A stretch of DNA of 64,000 bases from a virus (IMGVR_UViG_3300021400_000028:42250-106249); one strand, 5' to 3'. Counted from the stretch's first letter, positions 2 through 28,628 are shown. A program made the numbers and translations. Notes: a model not told the origin generated them from the letters alone.

Positions 2-1780
2 AGAACTGGGGATAATACTTGAGCTTTAGATAGTACAAGTTATGCTTCTGCGAGCGCCCTATCCGGCTATCTGCCGCTGACGGGCGGGACGCTGACGGGG
101 GAATTAAACATTCGGGACAGCTCGCTGAACTTTGTTTCTTCCACTGCCGGGAGTCTAATTCATAGATTGGCTAATAGCTCCAATCACCAGCCGTCATGGT
201 TTGACGGAACCAGTTGGAAAACGATTGCGTATGCGGCTGACTTAAATGACTATGTAAGGAAGTCCGGTGATGTTATTACCGGGCAGATTTACATGAACAA
301 TAGCTATTTTATTTTCAGGACTGCAGAGAGTGTTAATATCGGACACCTAAACGCGAGGGCAAGCGACAACGCCCTTATCTGGTATGATACTACGAAGTGG
401 AATACTGTCTGACACTCCGGTAACTCCAACCTTTCCACGGTGGATTGGAACGCGAAAGCACTTAACACAAACGACAGGATATTTATTAATTGTGGTAGTG
501 ATGGTTCCAAGCCGACTATAATGTGGAACAAGGCCGGAAACCTTGGTTGTATAGGGTATAGCGGTAATTCAATCGTGATAGGAGATTGTACGAATAGTTC
601 TTCTACTACATTTGCTAATACTTTTGTAAATATAACAACTGGCGGTAATGTCGGTATCGGCACTTCTTCTCCAGCCTACAAGCTGGATGTTCACGGAATC
701 TCGGCAAGTAATTATATGCTATTTTACGGGACTGATGGGACTACCGTTCAGGGGTATGTTGGTCGCGCTGGTTCTGTTAATAATACTATTTATCTTGATT
801 CTTATAACAAAAATAACATATCAATAGCTATCGGAGGAGGCAAGGTTGGCATCGGAACGGCTAGTCCCTCTTCCACATTAAGCCTATATACGAATGGAAC
901 CACAAATGAAACAAATATAACATTGACATCGGATGGGACCGGTGGAGATATTGGTTCTATCTATATACAGAAGGAAAGTGGAAACGGGTTTGTTTTCGCG
1001 GAACTCAATCGTGATTTCATTTGGAGAGTAGGAGAAGGCTCTACTGCGGGAGGTGGTGGAACAGAGCGGATGAGGCTGAACAATGCTGGCAATCTTGGTA
1101 TTGGCATTAGCTCGCCTTCGTACATGCTCGATGTGAATGGTGCCGCCAGAGCCACTCAAATTATTACACCGTCTATTAGTAATTCGAGTGGTATTTCTAT
1201 TACTGCTGATTATATTGGTTTAGAAGCTACTGGTGATTCACTTGATTTTACATCTCCGGATTCGTTTAATTTCTCTGGAGGTGGTGATATGTATATCACG
1301 AATAATAATGTTTATGCAAATGGGTTCGTCAAAACAGGTGGTACATCATCTCAATTTCTTAAAGCAGATGGTAGTGTTGATAGTAATACTTATTTGAGTA
1401 CTGCATCGCTATCTGGATATCTTCCTTTAACTGGAGGTACTATTACTGGTAGTTTAACTGTTAATAATAGAATAACTACTAGAAATATTGGTAGTGGCTC
1501 TTATCAAAACTGACACATTAAAGATGATTCAGATATTAATTCCAGCTCTAATAATCTTGAAATTTATACTGAAGATGAACTGCGTATTAATGCAGGATCT
1601 ATAGAAATGTCTGCTGATGATATTACCATTAATAATGTTTATGATCTTAATTTTGGACAAATTAAAATTAGCACATATCAAAATACATTTATTATTGATA
1701 ATACTGTTACAAAAAGTCGTTACTTGATACATTTAGATGGAACTAATAGCGGTGATTATGTTGAATTTGAGAGATATTAA
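2..1780 (+). CDS. Tail fibre / receptor-binding protein, 3' part (592 aa visible; 5' end outside window; TGA=Trp)
   Basis: Frame open from base 2 to TAA 1778-1780 if TGA at 20-22, 410-412 and 1511-1513 is Trp (the 410 TGA gives the fibre-typical VWHSGN). Three GN(V/L)GIG-x-SSP-type repeats and two LSGYLPLTGGT(L/I)TG repeats are typical phage fibre modules. Confidence 0.8.
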
Positions 1781-1820
1781 TAACAAAAAAGGCTACTCTT
1801 ATGAGTAGCCTTTTCTTTTT
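1781..1820. terminator. Bidirectional intrinsic terminator
   Basis: GGCTACTC-TTAT-GAGTAGCC hairpin (1791-1810) with an A-tract before and a T-tract after, between convergent genes. Confidence 0.9.
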
Positions 1821-2107
1821 TATTTTATATTCTGTAAATCTTCTAATGTTCAGAACAATTCTTTAAATCCTTGTTCTTTTCTTCCTTTTGGTATCTTTCC
1901 ACTTCGAACTCAGTTATCAAATGTTGCACGACTTATTTTAAGATACTTACATGCTTGATATTTACTAAGTTTATTTTGTGTATTCGTTGCTTTATTAAGA
2001 ATTTCTAAATATCCAGTACATTGTTCGTCTGTAAATGCTGAATTACCAGTATCAATTCCATTAGCAATTTCTAATAAAGTATCTCTAAGTAGTTCTTGTT
2101 TTGACAT
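1820..2107 (-). CDS. Small helix-turn-helix (Xis/HTH_17-like) DNA-binding protein, 95 aa (2 TGA=Trp)
   Basis: LSKYQACKYLKISRATFDN-W-VRSGKIPKG is an excisionase/MerR-like HTH; the W is a TGA. Ends at TAA 1820-1822. Confidence 0.75.
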
Positions 2108-2477
2108 TATATTTATTTTTAAGGTACATCCCGATTAATATAAATACTATTGTTATTGTTGAATAGACGAATATCATTTGTAGATTATTGATTGGGATTG
2201 TTCAAGTATAATCAATTCATGAAATTGCATTATTTATTCATGTATAATATAATGGTAGTCTGTGTCAAATGCAACATCTAAATGTAAATGATGCAAATAA
2301 TCACATTGCTGTTGGAATTAATGATACTTGAAACAGTATGGATAGAATTGGTGTAGTTATTCCAAAACATCCAAATATAACAGTAATAAATGATATAATC
2401 CCGATTAAAAATGAACCGTATTTTAAAAATATCAGAAATCATCGATATCCAACTAAACTAATTGACTTCTCCTCCAT
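2085..2477 (-). CDS. Small multi-pass membrane protein, 130 aa (6 TGA=Trp; missed by ORF track)
   Basis: MEEKSISLVGYRWFLIFLKYGSFLIGIISFITVIFGCFG... has several hydrophobic segments and is open to TAG 2085-2087 only with TGA=Trp. Confidence 0.75.
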
Positions 2478-2748
2478 TATTCTTCATTGTTACATGTTCT
2501 TTTCCTAAACTTAAATTTGTAAATCAACCCATTCCACGTCCTCTAGGTTTATTCATTCAATCTTGTTTTGTAGGTTCTTCCTGAGGAACTTGTTCAATTG
2601 GTTTGGATTGGTCAATTTCTTGTACATTTTCTTCACTTTTAGGAAAGAATCTTTCTGAATTCCTATTTATCGTTTTTTCCATTGATGCTCTTATTTTCTG
2701 CATCATCTCCTGTATTTGCTGTGTTGTTAAATTTATGTTTTCTGGCAT
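2458..2748 (-). CDS. Hypothetical Gln/Glu-rich protein, 96 aa (2 TGA=Trp)
   Basis: Track ORF 2557..2748 extends through TGA (QD-W-MNKPRGRGMG-W-FTN) to TAG 2458-2460, overlapping the start of the next gene. Confidence 0.65.
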
Positions 2749-2784
2749 AATATAAAAGTTTTAAAATTAAACATCTTTTTGCAG

Positions 2785-2815
2785 CAAATATAATAATTAA
2801 TTTCTAAAAATCAAA
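2785..2815 (-). promoter_or_regulatory. Bacteroidetes sigma-A type promoter (leftward)
   Basis: Minus strand TTTG (2815-2812), 19-nt spacer, TATATTTG (2792-2785) matches the -33/-7 consensus TTTG-N19-21-TAnnTTTG. Confidence 0.8.
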
Positions 2816-2933
2816 ATTATTTCTTTAGTAACGTATTGAAACTTAAAAATCTTTATAACTAACTATAAATCAATCCATTAAAATATTTTAAACTTTCTTT
2901 TAGCATTGTTCTATTTTTGGCCATTTTATGTCG

Positions 2934-2972
2934 TATCTTTGCACCGTTGATCAACAGTAGTCGGATTTCCGA
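2934..2972 (+). promoter_or_regulatory. Promoter -7 box with two downstream palindromes (possible operators)
   Basis: TATCTTTG at 2934-2941, perfect palindrome GTTGATCAAC 2946-2955 and inverted repeat TCGGA-TT-TCCGA 2961-2972. The -33 TTTG is less well spaced (2916-2919). Confidence 0.6.
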
Positions 2973-3008
2973 TGAATTATACGTTTAATTTTTAAAACAT
3001 TAACAAAA

Positions 3009-3908
3009 ATGGCTGACGAAAAAACTTATGTATTTGACAGTGCATCTCGTAATGATATTCCTCTTGCTTATGCACTTAACAACAACGGTTGGGGCAATGG
3101 TGGTTATGGCCTCGGTGGTTGAGGTGGTGGTATTCTCGGTTTCCTTCTTGGCGCTATGTTTGGTGGCGGTTTTGGAGGCTGGGGTAATGGTTTCGGTGGC
3201 GGCATGGCCGGTGCTGGCTATCTTGGAAACACCATGAATAACAACAATAACACTGATTTAATTATGCAGGCTATTAATGGTACAGATTCTGACGTTCGTT
3301 TACTTGCTACTACTCTTAACGCTGATGTAAATGAAGTACGTTCTGCTATTTCTACGATTAATACAGGTATTGCTAATGTTGGTTCTCAGGTTGGTTTAAC
3401 TGGTCTTCAGGTAGTTAACGCTATTCAGGCCGGTGATGCTAGTCTTGCTAGTCAATTAGCTTCGTGTTGCTGCGAAAATCGTCTTTTAACTACTACACAG
3501 GGTTATGAGAATCAGATTCGTACTATTGAGCAGACAAATACTCTTAGCACTCAGGCTGAACGTAACACTGGTTCCATCATTGACGCTATTAATGCTCAAA
3601 CTATTGCTATGAACGATCAGTTCTGTGCTTTGAAGGAACGTGAACTTCAGAATAAGATTGATACTCTTACTGCTGCTAATACTTCCCTCCGTGGACAGAT
3701 TGACAATGCTAATCAAACCGCTGCTGTTGCTGCTATGCTTGCTCCAATTCAGAAAGAAGTTTCTGAAATTAAAGCTGCACAGCCTAACACAGTTGCTGTA
3801 CAATGGCCTCAATTAACTGCTGTGCCTTCGACTTATCTTTACGGTAATGGCAGCTACTATGGTGGTTATCCTTATTACTATGGTGGAAACGGCTCTATCT
3901 GGGCATAA
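3009..3908 (+). CDS. Gly-rich / coiled-coil / Cys-Cys-Cys / Tyr-Gly-tail protein of unknown function, 299 aa (true start upstream of track ORF; 1 TGA=Trp)
   Basis: ATG 3009 (MADEKTYVFD) is in frame with track ORF 3156..3908 through TGA 3120-3122. Motifs GILGFLLGAMFGGGFGGW, QLASCCCENRL and C-terminal YLYGNGSYYGGYPYYYGG. Confidence 0.85.
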
Positions 3909-3933
3909 TTGCTTAGGAGGGGCATAGTACACT

Positions 3934-4266
3934 ATGGGAACTAGTTTTTTATTTAATAGAGTGAATCTAAACGGAATTCCTTGTATTGAAACTGCAAGTA
4001 TTACTGAAAATGCAACTTCTGTAACGTATAACTTTAATCCTTCACCTGCAGTAAGCCCTAGATTTTCTGGAATTATTGCTGTACGTGTTGACGAAGTTCC
4101 TACTAATACTGCATTGCCTGTAAGCTTTAATGTTCCAAGTATAGCTGGTACTACAATTGCTTTAACACTTATTGGTGGAACTCAAGCAACTGGTGCTGAC
4201 TTAGAAGAAGGAATTCATATCGTTTTCTATGATAGATTCAACGGAATTTTACAATTGTTAGTTTAA
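3934..4266 (+). CDS. Hypothetical beta-rich protein, 110 aa
   Basis: Intact ORF tightly spaced in operon; sequence rich in T/V/P beta-strand-like segments. Confidence 0.75.
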   Translation: MGTSFLFNRVNLNGIPCIETASITENATSVTYNFNPSPAVSPRFSGIIAVRVDEVPTNTALPVSFNVPSIAGTTIALTLIGGTQATGADLEEGIHIVFYDRFNGILQLLV

Positions 4267-4270
4267 TTTT

Positions 4271-4774
4271 ATGTTTCAATCAGTAAGACCTAATAGTCCT
4301 ATATATGTATTACATAAAGGGGACAATCCTCGTTTAGAAACTGGTTATGTTGCTAATCAGCCAATTCCTAAACCTAAATATCAAATGCCACATACTTTTG
4401 GGCAACCGCAAGAGATGATTGTAGATTTAGTAATCAAACTTAATGATGTATCTATAAATTTAAATGCAATTCCGGCTGGGTTGGATATTGCAGATTCTTA
4501 TAGTAATGGTGAAAACATTGTTATTTCTGATAGCAGAGAGGCAATGAATTCAGAAATATTAAGTTTGAAACAGAAAAGTGTTGATATTTTAAATAGTGCT
4601 CCTTATCATAAGTCACTTATACAGCAATATGATAAATTGCTTTCTGATTTTAATCCAGAAATGGCAGAAAAGCAAGCTCAACAGCAAGAAATTGCAAGCC
4701 TTAGAAACCAGATGAATGAGATGTCCAAAAACATGGCTTTGCTGATTGAACAATTAAAAAATAAGGAGAAATAA
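4271..4774 (+). CDS. Hypothetical protein with C-terminal coiled coil, 167 aa
   Basis: Intact ORF, 4 nt after previous stop; C-terminal AEKQAQQQEIASLRNQMNEM heptad pattern. Confidence 0.8.
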   Translation: MFQSVRPNSPIYVLHKGDNPRLETGYVANQPIPKPKYQMPHTFGQPQEMIVDLVIKLNDVSINLNAIPAGLDIADSYSNGENIVISDSREAMNSEILSLKQKSVDILNSAPYHKSLIQQYDKLLSDFNPEMAEKQAQQQEIASLRNQMNEMSKNMALLIEQLKNKEK

Positions 4775-4775
4775 C

Positions 4776-4976
4776 ATGAGAATGTGGGAAATACGCGAAA
4801 AAGACCGTAGCAAAGGTAGAGACTATCGTGAAGATATGCGGCATGATAAATCAATAGATGAAGCATACGAATGTGGCTATGAAGATGGCTACGAAGATGC
4901 TATGAAAGAATTAGAAGATAGTTATGGTGAGCGTTCTTATAGATCTTCTAGCAGACGCTCTATGAAAATGCGCTAG
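4776..4976 (+). CDS. Small highly charged (Arg/Asp/Glu/Tyr/Ser) protein, 66 aa
   Basis: Intact ORF ending TAG; YECGYEDGYED repeats and RSYRSSSRRS tail. Confidence 0.7.
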   Translation: MRMWEIREKDRSKGRDYREDMRHDKSIDEAYECGYEDGYEDAMKELEDSYGERSYRSSSRRSMKMR

Positions 4977-4978
4977 TT

Positions 4979-5386
4979 ATGAGATTAGATGCAAGAGATA
5001 AGTTTCCTTCTGGAATGGAAGAATACTTAGCAATGTATGGTTGACACTTTAGTAAAAAGATGTGTGAATGAGTAGTTTCTAACATGTATAAAACTACTGA
5101 TGGGAAGAAAATTCCAATTATTCCCATTAAAAAAGAGGATATTGATAGAATACTCAAGGAAAATAACATTACATTAGATAACAAATATGGTTATGATTAT
5201 GTCTTTGCTGCAAATATGTGCAAAGCCGATTATCTAGGAAGCTCTGTACCAGACGAACATCATCTTGCATTATTTGTTAAAGATTATGTAGATGATCCTG
5301 ATGGATATCCTGAATTGCCTTTCACAAGATTTTATGGTGATACGATTGGATTGGGGTTGTCTATTGATTGAGAAGAAATGATTTAA
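4979..5386 (+). CDS. Conserved-looking hypothetical protein, 135 aa (3 TGA=Trp)
   Basis: ATG 4979 MRLDARDKFP...YG-W-HFSKKMCE-W-VVS joins track ORF 5084..5371 and runs to TAA 5384-5386. Confidence 0.8.
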
Positions 5387-5388
5387 TT

Positions 5389-5805
5389 ATGTTATTAGCA
5401 CAAGAGTTTTACTTATACGATTATTATTGAACCGTTAAAGTGTTTTATGCTGTTGATTCAATACCAATTGATTATGTTCTCACAGAACTTGAGAAAATTG
5501 GATGCTCAGGAGAAGATCTTGACTCTGCAGAATTTGTTTTGACTGACGGAACTAATAAAGGTTTAACATATTCTAACTTTAATGACCGTGAATCAATAGT
5601 TGTTATAGGTGTCACATCTTGTCCTGCAGAATTTCAACATACATACGATCATGAGAAACTTCATCTAGCAATGCATATAGCGCAGCACTTCGATATAGAT
5701 CCTTTTAGTGAGGAATTAGCCTATTTAGTTGGCGATATTGGATTGGAAATGTTTCCAATCGCAAAGAAGTTTTTATGTGAACATTGTAGAGAAGAATTAG
5801 AATAG
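5389..5805 (+). CDS. Putative small zinc metallopeptidase (HExxH), 138 aa (1 TGA=Trp)
   Basis: ATG 5389 is in frame with track ORF 5440; HEKLH at 5650-5664 with downstream EELAY as candidate third zinc ligand. Confidence 0.6.
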
Positions 5806-5815
5806 ATTTTTTATT

Positions 5816-5850
5816 AAAGGTGGAGATTGAAAAAATCTTCACCTTTTTTG
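5816..5850 (+). terminator. Intrinsic terminator closing the 3009-5805 operon
   Basis: AAAGGTGGAGATT-GAAAA-AATCTTCACCTTT hairpin followed by T-tract. Confidence 0.8.
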
Positions 5851-5868
5851 TTAATTTTTGTAAAAAAA

Positions 5869-5900
5869 TTTGGAAAATTGAAATTTATTTTATATATTTG
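5869..5900 (+). promoter_or_regulatory. Bacteroidetes sigma-A type promoter
   Basis: TTTG 5869-5872, 20-nt spacer, TATATTTG 5893-5900. Confidence 0.85.
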
Positions 5901-5987
5901 CACCGAATATGAAAAGTTTAGAAAAATTTTAAATTTCTAAATTTAAGAATAAAAAAGATGCAATAAGAACTAATAAGTTAATGTTTT

Positions 5988-6473
5988 ATGATTGAATTAA
6001 AAAATTATCAATTGGATGAAATTATATCCATCCTAAACAAGGTTCAGTTAAACAAAATTACTGATGCAGAAATGCGTAAGACTATTTTAAAGTTTGTTTT
6101 GCTGATGCCAAAGAAGTTAGAATCTGTTAAGAACGAGATCGATGAAACTAGAAAGAAGTTTTTTAGTGAATTTAAAGAAGAAGATCTTAATAAATTTCAG
6201 GTAGCACTTAATGAAATCAGTGAGCTTATAAAAGACGGGAAGACTACAGAAGCTCTAAAGAAAGATGCTGAAGTTTCCAAAGAATTTCCAGAAATTGTAA
6301 CAGCTTATAAGAACTTTAATGATGCAATTAATTCTCTTCAGAAAGAAACGGTTGAATTAACACTTGAACCTATTAAAGTTGAGGATTTTATTGATGCTAT
6401 GACTAAACAGGATATTACAATTTCTGCAAAAGAAATCAATATACTTAATCCTATTTTTATAAATGAATCTTAA
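5988..6473 (+). CDS. Hypothetical alpha-helical/coiled-coil protein, 161 aa
   Basis: Intact ORF downstream of promoter, K/E-rich. Confidence 0.75.
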   Translation: MIELKNYQLDEIISILNKVQLNKITDAEMRKTILKFVLLMPKKLESVKNEIDETRKKFFSEFKEEDLNKFQVALNEISELIKDGKTTEALKKDAEVSKEFPEIVTAYKNFNDAINSLQKETVELTLEPIKVEDFIDAMTKQDITISAKEINILNPIFINES

Positions 6474-7089
6474 TATTAAACTTATAATATCTTTTGTTTG
6501 TTTAGCTTTAATAGTTGGATTGGGTTGGTTTGTTGTCAATCAAAATAAACAAATTCGAGAACTTAATCAGAATCTGGAATATGCTATTAATAACAACAAA
6601 GCATATGAAGCTGAAAATAGCACTTTAAATGATCAGATTATTGAGTTTAAAATGACAGCTAAACAACTTTCTTATAGTCGTGATTCTCTAACTCAAAAGT
6701 TAAATAATGTTAGAAACGAACTTAAAATAAAAGATAAACAAATAAAAGAACTACAATATATTGCTTCAGAGAACAGAAAACGCGATACTGTTCGATTAAA
6801 AGATACAATCTTCGTTGAAGGGGTTGCACTTGACACTTTAATTCAGGATAAATGAAGTAGTCTTAAACTTCAAGCACAATATCCAAATCTTTTAAATGTT
6901 GATTATTCTTTCAACAACTCTACAATGATTCTAACACACACTTCTCGTGTAACTGTAGATCCTCCTAAAAAGTGTTGAATTGCAAGATTGTTTCAAAAGA
7001 AGCATACTATTGTAGAAATAGATGTCATCCAAGAAAATCCTTATTGTACAACAAAAGAGGAAAAATTTATAGAAATAATTGATAAATAA
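6463..7089 (+). CDS. Putative spanin-like lysis/membrane protein, 208 aa (2 TGA=Trp)
   Basis: N-terminal transmembrane helix followed by a long coiled coil; reads through TGA 6853 and a second TGA to TAA 7087-7089. Function inferred from architecture only. Confidence 0.5.
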
Positions 7090-7121
7090 TTTGGAATTTT
7101 AAAAAATTATTTTTATATTTG
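7090..7121 (+). promoter_or_regulatory. Bacteroidetes sigma-A type promoter for the capsid operon
   Basis: TTTG 7090-7093, 20-nt spacer, TATATTTG 7114-7121. Confidence 0.85.
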
Positions 7122-8271: not shown

Positions 8272-11200
8272 ATGGCAATTAGAATTAGTGGCTTCACGAC
8301 TATTCGTCCTGAAATGGCCAATACTAGAACTTACGAGGATTTCTCTCGTTTCCTCGGTGGATTTCGTGCCGAGGTTAAATCTTGTGAATTGCTGGAACCC
8401 CTCCAAAGCCATATATAATCGATTATTTGGGAAATCAGCAGCCAAGCGTGAGGTTAACAACTCATGAAGGTTCGACGGTCATCTATTTGAAACTAATCTG
8501 GGTAAATTAGAATATAAAATAGGCAAGAGCGCAAGACATCACCAAGGGAAGGATGATGATATGACCTGAACACGTGAAATGGAAAATCACATGAAGTCTA
8601 GTTTAAACGGCTAGAATGAAACGAATTGACAAAACCTGAAAGACTTGGTCTTGTTGCCAAGCTTTATGATCAGTATACCTTCACTGGTCTTACCGAAGCT
8701 CTCTTCAATACTTATACTAACGAAAAGACTAACAAGAATTCTTGGCAGCGTCTTAACGCTTATATGTATGAATGGGATCTTGAGGTAGAACGTATTAAAC
8801 GAGTACCTATTCTCTCTATTGAGGGTAATGGTTGCAATGCAACTGACATTCTTTTCCGTTTCCCGGAAAACTACTATCAGAAGTATGATACTTTCATTCT
8901 TGAAGATCTTCGTCAGTATGTTATTGTTATGAATCGTCCTCAGCGTATTTCTGACAACTGCTTCCTTGTAGTTGGTAAGCTTGTTGATGATGATTATTCT
9001 GCTCAGCTTCCTCAGTCGTTTATTGAAAATGCTAATGGCAGACTTACTCGTTTTGTTACGAATTTTATGCCCGAACTTCATGAAGAAGGTAAGAAAACGT
9101 ACTTGTATTGCCCTCTTCCGCTTATATTTAATATAAGTGTAAAATTAAAAAAACCTCTCTAACTGCTGGAAATCCAATGTGGACAATCAGCAACGAAGAC
9201 TCAAAAGAGTAACGCTCAACGACTATCGAAAACATAACATAAAAGAAATATTTATGTGAATAAGTGAGTAGAGTAGGATTTATATCCGAAACGGGAGGCA
9301 ATTTAACAAGGATAAAACAAGTTAAATTGAAGATATAGTCTGAACATTACGGAAACGTAATGATTAACACAAAATGTATACTAAGTACCAAAGCTCAACT
9401 GAAAAATTTAGAGGCTTTATCTCTACACACCGTTGCGATGTTGATTATTCCGCTCAATACAAGAGTATGGAGGATGTATTCATTCAGATTGGTAAAGGAA
9501 AGGATGATGATCCCGTTTACCGTCTTCCTGGTGTAAAGAAGGTTCTTCTCGATAGCTTTATGCAGGTTCGTGAAGGAAAATTCACCTGGGGTAAGTCTGA
9601 CGTCGATAAGAATGGAAATCCTTGATAATCAGGGACTTACGATGGTGACATCGTACTGAAAATCACTTAAATTGCTGGGAAGCCTTAAAGCAAATAACAC
9701 TACAATACGTATGTATGATAGTATGACAAGCTTATTTGATTAGGTAATCAGCAGCAAAGGCTGTCTAAGACAGAATGTTCAACGACTAAAAATTTGAAAT
9801 CTTTATATGTATAAATACATAGTTTATAAAACGACAAATATAATAAATAATTTTATCTACATAGGTGTTCACAGAACAATTGTAGGTATAGATGACGGAT
9901 ATATCGGTTGCGGTTTATATAACTCACCGTATGCTGTTAAGCAATTTAAGCATTATAAGTTTCATAAGGCTGTTAAAAAATACGGAGTATCTAATTTCAT
10001 TAGAGAAACGTTATTTGAATACGCTGATACAGAAGAAGGAAAAAAAGCAGCTTATAAAAAAGAAGCTGAGTTAGTAAACCGTGATTTTTTAAAAAGAAAA
10101 GATGTGTATAATACAGTTCTTGGCGGAAAAATGCCATCGTCCGCAGTAGAACGAGAAGTTGCACAATATAGTTTAGATGGTGTGTTTTTAAGAATGTATT
10201 ATTCAATAACACATGCGTCTCAAACTACAGGAATTTCACATAGCGGTATTCAAGCCGCATGTAATGGTGAAATTAAATATTGTCGAGAATACCAATGAAG
10301 ATATTTTAATGGAAGTACAGACAATATTGATCCTGTGACTGAAAGAACTAAACGTGTCTATCAGTTTGATTTACAAGGTAATTATATCACGTCTTATAAA
10401 TCCTGTCACGAAGCTTCCAAAAAAACAGGTATAATTGTAACATATATTAACAATGCCTGCCTTGGAAAGATTCGTTGTTCTCATGGTTATTATTGAAGCT
10501 ACGAAAAACACTTTAATTATACTCCAGCTGATAAAAAATGTACAGCAGTTGCTTGTTATAATGATAGTGGTGAATTTATAAAAGTTTATTCGTCGATAAC
10601 AGATGCTTCCAAAGAATTAAAGGTTAGTTATGGAAGTATATATAAAGCGTTATCTGGATATAGAAAGCATTGTGCTAATTATAGGTGACGTTATTTTTAT
10701 GGTAATACCGATAACATTGAGTCGTTAAAAGATTAAGATATAGTCTGCTCTTTATGGAAACATAAAGCTAACACAAAGGACCATTTATGAGAGCGAAACT
10801 GGCCGTCCAATTATCACATCGGATGGTATCATAGCTCAGGTTGAGAGATATGCAACCAAATTCGTATTTAATAAGCTTTCTGTCGCATGGCTTAAGAAAG
10901 CTATCACCGCTCTTACTGCAAAGAGTGACAAGAGTATGGGTAACTCCTATATAGTTATCTGTAATACTTCCGCTATGGAAGATGTACAGCAGTGCATCGA
11001 TCTCTTCCTTAAGGATCGTCATACTGATGGTGACTTCCTCTGGAGTCGTGGCTCTAACGGTTATGTAAAAGCTGGTGCTACTTATGATGCATATACTTAT
11101 ATGGGTAATACTATTGCCTTTAAGGTAGAACGTTCTCTTGACGTTGAATTCCCTGATCGTAAGTACATGCTCATGATTGATCTTACCCCGGATTCGAAGA

Positions 11201-13463: not shown

Positions 13464-14432
13464 ATGTTTCAGTACACACACGAATTAGTTATTAATAGCA
13501 TCAATTCTGCTATTAGCAAGAAAAACTCTGACAACACTGTTACCATCGAACGTGGTGGTGAATATAAGAAAGAATTTGTTCAGGGTGGTGTTATTTGGCA
13601 GACTAACGCTGTAGAGGGTGTTCTCGATAAGATTACTCTTGATGTTTCTGCTCTTAATCTTGAAGCTGGCAAGAATTATGCTCTTAATATGTTTGTTAAG
13701 TTGGTTGATCCTCATTCTTTCTTCGAATATGGTTATCCCAACTATAATACTTTTGGTAAGCAGGTTCTTGTTGACTTTCAGTCTGTAGATGCTGCTACCG
13801 ATGCTAAGACCATTCTCGATTCTATTCTTCCTCAGGTTATGGAGAATGATCTCACTTTCGTTAAGGATGCCGGTTCTTCTGGTAACAATGTAGTTCTTGA
13901 AGTTGGACATACTGGTCTTCGTTTTGACTCCCTTGCTATTGCTGAATACGATCCTACTACTTGTGATTCTTGCATTGGTGAGTATATGGCTCCTAAGGCT
14001 CTTCTCGATCGTGGTGATTGGGACAATGCTGATTCTGCTCTTACTCACACTGCTGAAGGTGTAGATCCTTTTGCTACTGGTCAGTGGCTTATTGAGAATC
14101 TTAGATTCCCTGCATATCCTAACATCCGTTATGCTGCCGTAAATAACGAAAATTATCCTATTCCTGGTGAAAAGTATACGATGTTCTCATTTGCTTACGA
14201 ATCTCCTCGTCCTGGTCTTGGTGGTCTTTCTGGTGTTGGCCAGATGGTTGCTGCTGTTACCCGTCATATTTATTATGTTCGTGGTGATGCCTCTGTTTCT
14301 GGTACTCCCGCCGCTGATTTCAAGACTCTTCTTGGTAATCTTGGTACAGTTACAGTAACTTCTAGTTCTGTTCCTACTGCTGCTACAATGCGTACCGAAA
14401 AGTCGGTCAATGAAAAAGAAGACGCTTCTTAA
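13464..14432 (+). CDS. Putative auxiliary capsid protein, 322 aa
   Basis: Position in capsid module, MCP-like high-expression codon usage, all Trp = TGG, followed by strong terminator. Confidence 0.55.
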   Translation: MFQYTHELVINSINSAISKKNSDNTVTIERGGEYKKEFVQGGVIWQTNAVEGVLDKITLDVSALNLEAGKNYALNMFVKLVDPHSFFEYGYPNYNTFGKQVLVDFQSVDAATDAKTILDSILPQVMENDLTFVKDAGSSGNNVVLEVGHTGLRFDSLAIAEYDPTTCDSCIGEYMAPKALLDRGDWDNADSALTHTAEGVDPFATGQWLIENLRFPAYPNIRYAAVNNENYPIPGEKYTMFSFAYESPRPGLGGLSGVGQMVAAVTRHIYYVRGDASVSGTPAADFKTLLGNLGTVTVTSSSVPTAATMRTEKSVNEKEDAS

Positions 14433-19900: not shown

Positions 19901-21892
19901 ATTTTTACTCCATTTGTTGGTATTCCATCTACATATGCATTGGAAAAAGAAGGCATCTACTCAATTCGACAGCAAGAACCTGCAATGTACCTGATGTTTA
20001 AAGTCAGAGAGCAGGACAATTCTCCGTATTATACCATAAGTAAACGATTTGAAATCAATTCTACTGACGAAGAAGTATTTGGTGGAGACTGTTATTCAAG
20101 TACAGTTACTATGCGTATTCTTCGTAACTTTATAGATCCAACAACACCTTATGTTGATAGAATTGTCAGACCTAATGGATGAAAAGAATACTTAATTGCA
20201 TTAGATAATGAAACTAGCACAGGAGAAGCTCTTTTAGAAGCAGAAAAGAATGTAAACTTAGCAGATGTCAATGCAGTAGATTTAGGATATTGAGTCACAT
20301 TTAAATGCTTATCTTCTTATAATCTTGGTTTACGCTCTGAAAATCGATTTAATACAGAAGAATTAGCATTAATGGGTTCACATAGATCGTTCTATCCTAT
20401 TAGTGGACTTTCTACAGCAACAGGAAATAAAGTTGAAGAATCATATCTTTTAAACGATGGTTTATCTGCAACTGTTGGACAAAAAAGATATTTAACTTTG
20501 AATAATCCACCTTATAGTAAGAGTGATTTTTCTACTCGTGTAATGTTCTCTAATAAACAAGTCACAGATGCTTTTACAAATGGTTATCGTACTATTCAAG
20601 GTTTGTCTTATCATGATTATGATAAACAATACGGTGAAATTGTAAAACTTCTACCATGAGGTAATAATTTGTTCTGTGTATTTGAACACGGATTAGCAAT
20701 ATTGCCAATTAACGAAAAAGCTCTGATGCAAACTACAACAGAACAAACAATTCATATTTATGGTCATGGTGTATTACCAGATCAAATGTCGATTGTATCT
20801 CAAGATTATGGTTCCAGATATGCAGATTCTGTTATAAGAACACCTTTGGGGGTTTATGGTATAGATGTTGACGCTAAAAAGATTTGGCGATTTACCGATA
20901 AACAAGGTTTTGAAACTATATCTGATATGAAGATAGAAAGTTTCTTAAATCTGCATTTAAAACCAGAAAATCATTCTCAAATTTCAGTTGGAACTAATGA
21001 TGTTCGTACACATTATAATTCCTTTAAAGGAGATGTAATATTCACATGATATTACGATAATGAAGAGTTTTCCATTTGTTTTAATGAAAGACAATCAGTT
21101 TGAACCACTCGTTACGATTGAATTCCAATAGTTTCTGAAAATATTAATGGAGAATTTTATTCTTTACAAACTGGATTAGATAGTAACAATACAGTTGGCA
21201 TTTATCATCACAATCCTATTGATTCTCGTCCAACTAAATGATATGGTAAACAACACGTGTTTGAATTCGAATTTGTTGTATCTGATCCAATTGGAGTTCA
21301 TAAAATATACGATGATTTGCAGATAATATCGAATAATGTTCAGCCAGAAGAATTATCTTTTGAAATTATTGGCGATGCTTATATGTTTAATAAATCTCGG
21401 TTATATCATACAGTTTATGATGGATATTTTAATCATAATAGACTTTATGGTAACGAAACTACTGATAAAAAATATGTAAATAGAGATGATCCAGAATTTA
21501 CAAAAGATAAAACTGAATCCGCTATTTATAAGCCTTTTAGAAATGCTAGTAAATTAAATGATAGAGGTGGAAAAACTGTTTATGGTGACATTCTAAAGAC
21601 AGATAATGCAACTGAACAATATCATTTGAGAATTCCTCAAGAATGCAGAAATATTGAAACATGAGGTCGCAGACTTGGAAATATTCATTATAAGAATGAT
21701 TCTTGATATACTAACATAGAACCTATTATCTATGATGCTCGATTAAATGATCCAAACATTACAACATTTGACAACAATATTAAGAAATGAAGTTCTGCAA
21801 GAATTAGAGACAAATGGTGCAAAATCAGAGTTCGTTATTCAGGAGAAGATTTATCTGTTATTACAGCAATTAAAACAAGTTTAAATATATAA
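16892..21892 (+). CDS. Tail muzzle / stabilisation protein (P22 gp10-like family in crAss-like phages), 1666 aa (many TGA=Trp)
   Basis: N-terminus NTFQDGLNLDLHPIVTPNSVLTDNLNGTFITYNGNEFCLQNDKGN is characteristic; seven track fragments share one frame separated only by TGA. Confidence 0.8.
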
Positions 21893-28597: not shown

Positions 28598-28628
28598 CAA
28601 AGATACTAAATTTCTAAAATTTATCAAA
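28598..28628 (-). promoter_or_regulatory. Bacteroidetes sigma-A type promoter (leftward)
   Basis: Minus strand TTTG (28628-28625), 19-nt spacer, TATCTTTG (28605-28598). Confidence 0.7.

Follow-up and report, generated by a model that had tools for sequence, protein, structure and literature searches.

An autonomous and widespread gene cassette of gut phages, led by a highly codon-optimized coiled-coil protein of undescribed function

What is the role of a self-contained set of phage genes whose lead product appears to be made in capsid-like amounts but resembles nothing described? The question is raised by positions 1781 to 5850 of IMGVR_UViG_3300021400_000028:42250-106249, a stretch of 64,000 nucleotides (nt; here called the window) taken from a phage genome of 170,249 bp that carries direct terminal repeats. 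The genome encodes giant late proteins typical of crAss-like phages. The original prediction, made from the DNA alone, had placed at this locus nine genes around a Gly/Tyr-rich protein with a Cys-Cys-Cys (CCC) motif and had offered two models, (a) a self-assembling matrix and (b) a peptidase-activated membrane effector. It is secure that the locus is a real and autonomous cassette that is transcribed and very widespread, that its function is undescribed, and that its lead protein, CCC (g1), is made in large amounts. Our own reading of what it does, which we hold tentatively, is essentially model (b). Searches of the literature on the cassette, on DUF7841, and on the CCC protein type in crAss-like phages found no description. 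In the following, the rightward genes are called g1 to g6 and the leftward genes gL1 to gL3.

The cassette becomes legible only when TGA is read as Trp. Under genetic code table 11, the genes of the module are interrupted; the nine reading frames all close once table 4 (TGA = Trp) is applied. Genes g5 and g6 contain no TGG codon, and Trp still falls at the invariant Trp columns of their families (41 homologues per alignment). Because the TGA codons of g5 and g6 align with these invariant columns, the recoding of TGA to Trp is proven. Six of the nine genes need it, and recoding of TGA has been tied to late genes and lysis genes in reviews (PMC10136315). ARAGORN called seven tRNAs in the whole genome, none of them with a UCA anticodon for TGA. 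In one of its calls, an odd 4-base anticodon, "taag," was reported (example site, genome positions 142354 to 142431, minus strand).

Read under code 4, the nine genes lie between two terminators, as originally described. An intrinsic, bidirectional terminator at 1785 to 1816 (12- to 14-bp stem, T runs on both strands) separates a tail fiber gene from the module, and a second intrinsic terminator at 5816 to 5846 (plus strand, 13-bp stem and T run) closes the rightward operon. All the genes share one divergent promoter region, a 260-bp gap that holds signals for both gene directions. Of the back-to-back promoters that had been claimed, the leftward one proved to be a full Bacteroidetes-type consensus, TTTG-N19-TATATTTG, at 2785 to 2815 on the minus strand (pattern match and direct reading). 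The rightward genes, however, have no full consensus in the gap and are preceded only by a -7 box, TATCTTTG, at 2934 to 2941 on the plus strand, which is the probable promoter of the CCC operon; a TTTG is present but badly spaced. The frequency of the full consensus across the window is no higher than chance, and five of its seven matches lie in intergenic gaps ahead of genes. The box TATCTTTG itself occurs five times in the window (at 2934 to 2941, 15099, 28598, 40743, and 59273) versus 5.3 expected, and because this count is at chance, its occurrence in both the CCC leader and the small-RNA promoter at 28598 to 28628 is not significant in itself.

The module stretch is also present in animal gut metatranscriptomes of several studies. 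RNA contigs cover 2965 to 3677 and 3752 to 5794 in one study and 3326 to 3809 and 4535 to 5825 in another. The contig of run X1 ends at 2965, just 3' of the -7 box, and the contig ends at 5794 and 5825 from the two studies lie near the closing terminator; the RNA spans fit the predicted promoter-to-terminator operon. The leftward genes were not covered by contigs in three of the four runs examined, although such contigs can show neither absence nor level and cannot rank expression. The runs represent real RNA of the phage, because their contigs carry joints that remove proposed introns of the capsid gene (region 8358 to 10780): 9090>9377 in X1 and X3, 9089>9377 in X8, and 9622>10780 in X1, X3, and X8. 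The further joint 8358>8629 was seen in X1 and X10. The presence of joints in contigs of three metatranscriptome studies indicates that the proposed capsid gene introns are spliced out in vivo.

Homologues of CCC form more than 4,866 clusters at 90% identity, none of them named, and 632 clusters at 50%. The cassette was found on at least 559 IMG/VR contigs, and its carriers include several crAss-like families as well as non-crAss Bacteroides phages. CCC is present in 32 GenBank phage genomes, mostly crAss-like (Suoliviridae and others), with one cultured carrier among these records, Bacteroides phage C3_41T2LP (OR296439; CCC homologue, WLZ21182.1), on Bacteroides uniformis MB20-41. A megablast search of window positions 1700 to 6000 against 50,697 phage records gave no match, and a single-protein scan of genome contigs found no relative, which does not amount to a survey of host genomes or prophages. 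For synteny, iterated profiles built from the window genes were used on 80 IMG/VR loci and 11 other loci; these 91 loci fall into 79 clusters at 90% identity, their CCC proteins being 40% identical in the median, and per-gene counts use only loci with enough flanking sequence. The homologues co-occur as a cluster in the 91 loci: g2 directly follows CCC in 82 of 89 loci, g3 is present in 86 of 88, the DUF7841 gene (g5) in 61 of 68, and the zincin gene (g6) in 68 of 82, all on one strand and at nearly fixed offsets from CCC, so that the arrangement is preserved in ~80 to 98% of these loci from crAss-like and other phages. Gene g4 is recognizable by sequence in 19 of 87 loci, and elsewhere a small open reading frame (ORF) usually occupies its slot.

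The conserved unit, as judged from these comparisons, is thus the six rightward genes, from CCC to the zincin, and the proposal of a self-contained nine-gene module holds for this part. It does not hold for gL1, which has no homologue in the 91 other loci and is apparently specific to the present genome, or for the divergent layout. Homologues of gL2 accompany the cassette in 26 of 65 loci and those of gL3 lie beside it in 24 of 65, giving a pair in ~40%. The pair normally lies directly upstream on the cassette strand and sometimes downstream, as in the closest relative (locus L013); it is inverted only here. Since gL2 and gL3 are linked in ~40% of the loci and are normally on the cassette strand, the divergent layout is particular to the present genome. 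That the pair has been kept through three arrangements (upstream, downstream, and inverted) argues for a functional linkage with the cassette.

Gene g1 (3009 to 3908, plus strand) encodes, under code 4, a CCC protein of 299 amino acids (aa) that does show the GxxxG N terminus, the CCC motif, and the Gly/Tyr tail first reported for it. A loosely conserved N-terminal peptide, M-(S/A)-(E/D)-x-K-T-x-V-F-P, is followed by an uncharged stretch of Gly, Asn, Phe, Leu, and Trp with GxxxGxxxG inside (median of 36 aa in the family; range, 20 to 86 aa), a predicted helical rod of ~190 aa and ~19 nm with four conserved cysteines, a P.T..V.(W/Y)P motif, and the tail. Residues 25 to 75 contain 28% G, 13% N, 9% F, and 4% W, and the last 30 residues contain 19% G and 9% Y. 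The CCC motif (residues 153 to 155) is nearly invariant, and a further conserved Cys is found at residue 206, 52 residues on. In the AlphaFold2 (AF2) model of an 83%-identical homologue, short helices precede a continuous helix at residues 132 to 257 (pLDDT, >90). A complex prediction for CCC residues 130 to 299 with g3 and g2 scored 0.00 and weighs neither way.

Similarity searches gave CCC no name. The sole PHROG family matched was phrog_16490 (E = 4e-36; function unknown), with no spanin profile, and the best rows of its profile against PDB were sub-significant coiled coils (E = 0.006 to 0.2), including HA2 (E = 0.02 to 0.2), coronavirus HR1 (E = 0.017 to 0.05), and PspA coiled coils, none of them significant. 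Foldseek searches with the CCC model against PDB and AFDB clusters returned nothing below E = 1e-3 save one unnamed AFDB entry, no fiber was among the PDB or AFDB matches of CCC, and no lipobox or signal peptide was found in g1. There was no confident match of CCC to a characterized virion protein, in agreement with the earlier view that no characterized function could be recognized here.

GenBank labels on CCC homologues read "hypothetical," "outer capsid protein/viral fiber," and "spike protein/glycoprotein"; the sub-significant coiled-coil similarity explains the last two. Taken at their word, the labels, which are found on homologues in at least 20 crAss-like records, imply an external capsid or tail fiber, i.e., a trimeric coiled-coil decoration with g2 and g3 as adaptors. 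The long predicted helical rod and an abundance like that of a decoration protein would suit such a structure, and decoration proteins are accessory. However, the labels trace to PDB profile matches at E = 0.006 to 0.2 and Foldseek matches at E > 1. A very hydrophobic uncharged segment would be odd on an exposed fiber, CCC has no globular receptor-binding domain, and in some phages the cassette lies outside the structural blocks. We regard an external fiber as very unlikely.

A bias by eye toward the codons of the major capsid protein (MCP) had been noted for g1, and it could be verified quantitatively: in a principal component analysis (PCA) of relative synonymous codon usage, CCC ranks with the five ORFs of the genome, out of 164, whose usage is most MCP-like, grouping at the extreme with one capsid gene exon and three other genes, whereas g2 to g6 and the leftward genes have ordinary codon usage. 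The bias is family-wide, CCC being codon optimized relative to its partners in 59 to 73 of 77 to 79 loci (five codon pairs). Because the codons of the lead gene are tuned to capsid-level expression, CCC represents a heavy investment by the phage. The three other genes with extreme capsid-like bias lie at window positions 13464 to 14429 (plus strand) and genome positions 119737 to 120270 and 148983 to 150020 (both minus strand); none of the three matched a PHROG, a search that also gave nothing for neighboring genes, and they probably encode other very abundant proteins.

How might an abundant coiled-coil protein with a fixed set of partners act? We propose, as a possibility that is less probable than not, that CCC, an abundant late protein, is a membrane-active rod that its partners process or regulate and that its target at egress is the host envelope. 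The cassette would be an autonomous late accessory unit, and CCC would be made from it in capsid-like amounts as a precursor that is either soluble or peripheral. The rod would oligomerize, and the soluble partners g2, g3, and DUF7841 together with the small zincin would hold or process it. Late in infection, CCC would become inserted in the cytoplasmic membrane or envelope of the producing cell, or would remodel it, with the three-transmembrane (TM)-helix protein gL2, where present, as its membrane partner; the outcome would be an egress or lysis-accessory function, and the helix-turn-helix (HTH) protein gL3 would be the cassette's own regulator. We counted in favor of this proposal the autonomy of the cassette, its fixed gene order, codon optimization confined to CCC, the long predicted helix, the zincin triad, the traveling gL2/gL3 pair, the lysis neighbors in Suoliviridae, a nearby Rz-like gene, the TGA dependence of six of the nine genes, and the uncharged Gly-rich stretch, which gives the profile its weak similarity to HA2 and coronavirus HR1. 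The uncharged glycine-zipper segment resembles a viral fusion peptide more nearly than it does a true TM helix. Its N flank is richer in K/R in 52 homologues versus 7, a charge distribution that favors an N-in topology if CCC spans a membrane.

Several observations weigh against this proposal. The hydrophobic stretch of CCC has a KD19 value of 1.29 (family median, 1.42) versus 2.4 to 2.8 in the true TM helices of the phage, and its Hessa-type sum has a median of about +3.5 kcal and is +2 or lower in only 18% of the members. No signal peptide, lipobox, or TM segment was found in g2 to g6, and there is no homology or fold match for a membrane or lysis role. Capsid-like abundance is atypical of holins or spanins, and the phage already owns a spanin-like gene (6463 to 7089). 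In C3_41T2LP, the neighbors of the cassette are recombination and replication genes. Recognized lysis genes (holin, lysin, and spanin-like genes, including DUF5675) occur within 5 to 7 kb in only 14 of the 46 loci that are fully flanked, a frequency not clearly above chance. Since the genuine TM helices of the phage score so much higher than this stretch, a constitutive TM anchor is doubtful, and the low hydrophobicity of the Gly-rich segment of CCC, the lack of export signals in its partners, and the separate spanin-like gene together weaken the picture of a spanin-like protein that spans the periplasm. Of the two original models, the parts list fits (b) slightly better, while (a) stays viable through the residue makeup of the termini of CCC and the lack of export signals in its partners.

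A reading akin to (a) would have CCC form a cytoplasmic matrix, filament, or condensate, in which an oligomeric coiled coil with cohesive aromatic-Gly ends, possibly cross-linked through its cysteines after release, organizes assembly or protects the progeny. Both termini of CCC are aromatic-Gly tracts of the "sticker and spacer" kind; the uncharged stretch has the variable length (20 to 86 aa) of a low-complexity tract, and its hydrophobicity is too low for a clear TM segment. High expression of CCC as judged from its codons, partners that are all predicted to be soluble, and the charged low-complexity protein g4 in the operon would also accord with a matrix. Yet tailed phages offer no known precedent of this kind, disulfide formation is unexpected in the cytoplasm of an anaerobe, and the 11- to 14-residue core of Leu, Phe, Ile, and Trp in the uncharged stretch of many homologues looks membrane seeking and not merely cohesive. 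Overall, such a matrix is unlikely. An equally low probability attaches to a bolder idea, that CCC is a new abundant self-assembling phage material. An oligomeric coiled coil would build, through its aromatic-Gly ends and its cysteine cluster, a gel, a lattice, or a coat attached to the membrane within infected cells of Bacteroidota, and the partners and the zincin would control the assembly. If this were true, the material would be a compartment-forming or envelope-remodeling device of crAss-like and other gut phages with no counterpart among described phage systems.

The inferred abundance of CCC can also be taken in another direction, with CCC as a bulk packaged internal or ejected protein that would be targeted by its N-terminal peptide and trimmed by the zincin, its fusion-peptide-like segment and its rod helping, upon infection, to bridge or pierce the envelope for the delivery of DNA and cargo. 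The coiled-coil tube of the H pilot protein of phiX174 would be an analogue. Capsid-like amounts inferred from codon use would be consistent with packaging, as the T4 head holds about 1,000 internal protein molecules (PMC3012670), and the N-terminal peptide of CCC parallels the targeting sequence of the accessory and poorly conserved T4 internal proteins, a cleaved 10-residue capsid targeting sequence (PMC9026906). Standalone MPTase-type zincins have been proposed as processors of packaged proteins (PMC5512222), a role that the zincin of the cassette might share. The partners lack export signals, and in ~20 loci and the window, the cassette lies just upstream of genes for a scaffold-like acidic protein and the capsid. 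On the other side, CCC has no similarity to known internal or ejection proteins, the traveling three-TM-helix protein and HTH regulator are not virion-type components, and in C3_41T2LP the cassette is far from the structural genes. The linked membrane protein and regulator weaken any purely virion reading, and we consider packaging doubtful, albeit a serious competitor to action at the envelope.

The proposal of a membrane-active rod leaves the holding or processing of CCC to its partners. Gene g2 (3934 to 4266, plus strand; code 4 ORF) encodes a beta-rich protein of 110 aa that has no match in Pfam, PHROG, or PDB. The 167-aa product of g3 (4271 to 4774, plus strand), a beta domain at its N terminus and helical toward its C terminus, matched phrog_28898 (E = 4e-49; function unknown) and, among PDB profiles, coiled-coil noise only. 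Protein atlas feature searches with g2 and g3 returned only unnamed viral clusters. The small g4 product (4776 to 4976, plus strand; 66 aa) is of low complexity, consisting of R/D/E/Y/S, and has weak matches to phrog_34053 and phrog_3025. Searches of PDB profiles with g2, g3, g5, and g6 produced noise only.

The product of g5 (4979 to 5386, plus strand; 135 aa) is a DUF7841 protein with three in-frame TGA codons at conserved Trp positions. It matched Pfam PF25223 with an E value of 6.6e-28 (97.7 bits versus a gathering cutoff of 25.2) and PHROG 38431 with an E value of 1e-51. Its AF2 model is a compact alpha/beta domain (pLDDT, 94) that has no relative in PDB (Foldseek, E > 0.7; wide VIA-align comparison, Z ≤ 3.9) and matched only other DUF7841 proteins in BFVD and AFDB. 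The invariant residues of the family are D82, D104, D106, and W129. CE-clan peptidases are overrepresented among the weak fold rows from VIA-align (12 of 50 rows, each with Z ≤ 3.9), but an assignment to the CE-clan cysteine peptidases (Ulp1/SENP/YopJ) was rejected, as the family has no conserved Cys or His for a His-Asp-Cys triad.

Gene g6 (5389 to 5805, plus strand) encodes a 138-aa minimal zincin-like metallopeptidase from its ATG, or 145 aa from a TTG at 5368, with an HEKLH motif and a downstream Glu. In 41 family sequences, W12, H86, E87, H90, and E106 are invariant, with E106 located 16 residues past H90. No member of the family passed a Pfam cutoff; sub-threshold rows were to SprT-like domains in 7 of 41 members (E = 0.013), MPTase-PolyVal in 2 of 41 (E = 8.7e-4), M78 in 3 of 41, and DUF6782.

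Zincins of the SprT, IrrE, and MPTase types are common in conflict systems (PMC5512222), and the cassette might on this ground be a superinfection exclusion or antidefense moron that blocks incoming phages or host immunity through a membrane-associated or protease-based mechanism. Its moron-like layout of promoter and terminators, its variable location, and the CE-clan peptidases among the weak fold rows of DUF7841 would be compatible with this. DUF7841, however, lacks a conserved Cys or His, capsid-like expression of a coiled-coil protein is unusual for exclusion or antidefense systems, and TGA-dependent translation argues for late rather than early action. An exclusion or antidefense role accordingly has little chance of being correct.

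The egress reading also draws on the leftward genes. The gene nearest the left terminator, gL3 (1820 to 2107, minus strand), contains two in-frame TGA codons and encodes a 95-aa HTH_17 (excisionase/MerR-like) DNA-binding protein, its match to Pfam HTH_17 (E = 1.9e-6) lying just above the cutoff. The neighboring gL2 (2085 to 2477, minus strand), in which all six Trp codons are TGA, encodes a 130-aa protein with three hydrophobic helices (KD19, 2.38; family median, 2.46) and a basic C terminus, KNKYNVKTRTT. It resembles holins in size and topology (one to four TM helices and a charged C terminus), but none of 34 members matched a holin family in Pfam or PHROG. Members of the gL2 family share an invariant Cys and, between helices 2 and 3, a near-invariant S..F.FC.xHR motif, which is unusual for a holin and suggests that these proteins may bind a metal or act catalytically. 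The remaining leftward gene, gL1 (2458 to 2748, minus strand; code 4 ORF), encodes a 96-aa Q/E-rich protein.

The flanks of the cassette are otherwise variable between phages. In Suoliviridae, the order is holin, LysB/FtsL-like gene, and DUF7841 gene, followed by CCC, g2, and g3; in cr272_1, an endolysin and a terminase follow the cassette. Assignment of the cassette to a lysis cassette by position was rejected on the 14 of 46 loci given above, adjacency being strict only in Suoliviridae. A scaffolding role for CCC was likewise rejected, since the cassette holds no constant place with respect to the capsid gene and the gene directly upstream of the latter encodes a different, acidic protein of 362 aa. 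The sole recognized lysin-type gene of the genome encodes a DUF5675 protein (genome positions 20691 to 21098, minus strand; two in-frame TGA codons) and lies 23 kb from the cassette; DUF5675 is a C82-like lysin (bioRxiv 10.64898/2026.04.11.717860). The spanin-like gene lies on the plus strand 660 bp downstream of the cassette and encodes a 208-aa Rz-like candidate with an N-terminal TM helix (KD19, 2.78), a coiled coil, a C-terminal beta domain, and matches to Rz-like PHROGs (E = 1e-6). With homologues near the cassette in 15 loci, it is, by its predicted features, the likeliest spanin-type gene of the phage. Full Bacteroidetes promoter consensus sites occur at 5869 to 5900 (plus strand), directly past the cassette terminator, and at 7090 to 7121 (plus strand), ahead of the gene for the acidic 362-aa protein, a pattern suggesting that the region before the capsid gene is divided into a series of separate late transcription units.

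Few unexplained gene sets of gut phages are as widespread as the cassette. It is absent from functional schemes of crAss-like biology and is mislabeled in GenBank as spike or fiber. Whether its role lies in egress, entry, compartment formation, or exclusion, knowing it would close a gap in the understanding of how infection is completed by the dominant phages of the human and animal gut. Because a cultured carrier, C3_41T2LP, exists on B. uniformis, the role is directly testable.

Among known systems, the proteins of the cassette match no characterized family or fold apart from the generic zincin motif, and the cassette may yet prove to be a variant of lysis or ejection machinery. Membership of its proteins in DUF7841 and PHROGs 16490, 28898, and 38431 adds no mechanism, because these are families of unknown function. 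The zincin MPTase core is defined by an HExxH helix and a downstream Glu as the third zinc ligand (PMC5512222), and g6 has these same elements in common with the zincins of mobile elements (MPTase-PolyVal, PF18818; SprT-like, PF10263; DUF6782; and IrrE/ImmA, M78). The g6 homologue in C3_41T2LP is annotated as a PolyVal metallopeptidase; g6, however, stands alone at ~135 aa instead of forming a domain within a polyvalent protein.

Like the spanins (Rz/Rz1 and T1 gp11 type) and the class I fusion proteins, CCC has a Gly-rich hydrophobic segment, a Cys-bearing rod, and an aromatic-rich end, and the predicted length of its rod is roughly the width of the periplasm. It differs in having no significant sequence or fold match, a hydrophobic segment too weak for a clear TM helix, no lipoprotein partner, and no C-terminal anchor, and its expression appears to be far higher than would be expected of spanins. 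The T4 internal proteins and P1 Dar proteins are likewise abundant, accessory, and poorly conserved late proteins with a short N-terminal peptide and a processing peptidase (PMC9026906, PMC3012670, PMC5512222). The T4 proteins, however, are small, basic, and globular, and their processing enzyme is a serine prohead protease; CCC, an acidic coiled coil (isoelectric point, 4.4), has no homology to them. Phage morons share with the cassette an own promoter region, flanking terminators, and an insertion site that varies between unrelated phages; in contrast to morons, the cassette is a coordinated set of six to eight genes, one of them very highly expressed, that is also found in virulent phages and is TGA dependent here. 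Beyond phages, the aromatic-glycine ends of CCC resemble the FG tracts of nucleoporins or the glycine-loop tracts of keratins.

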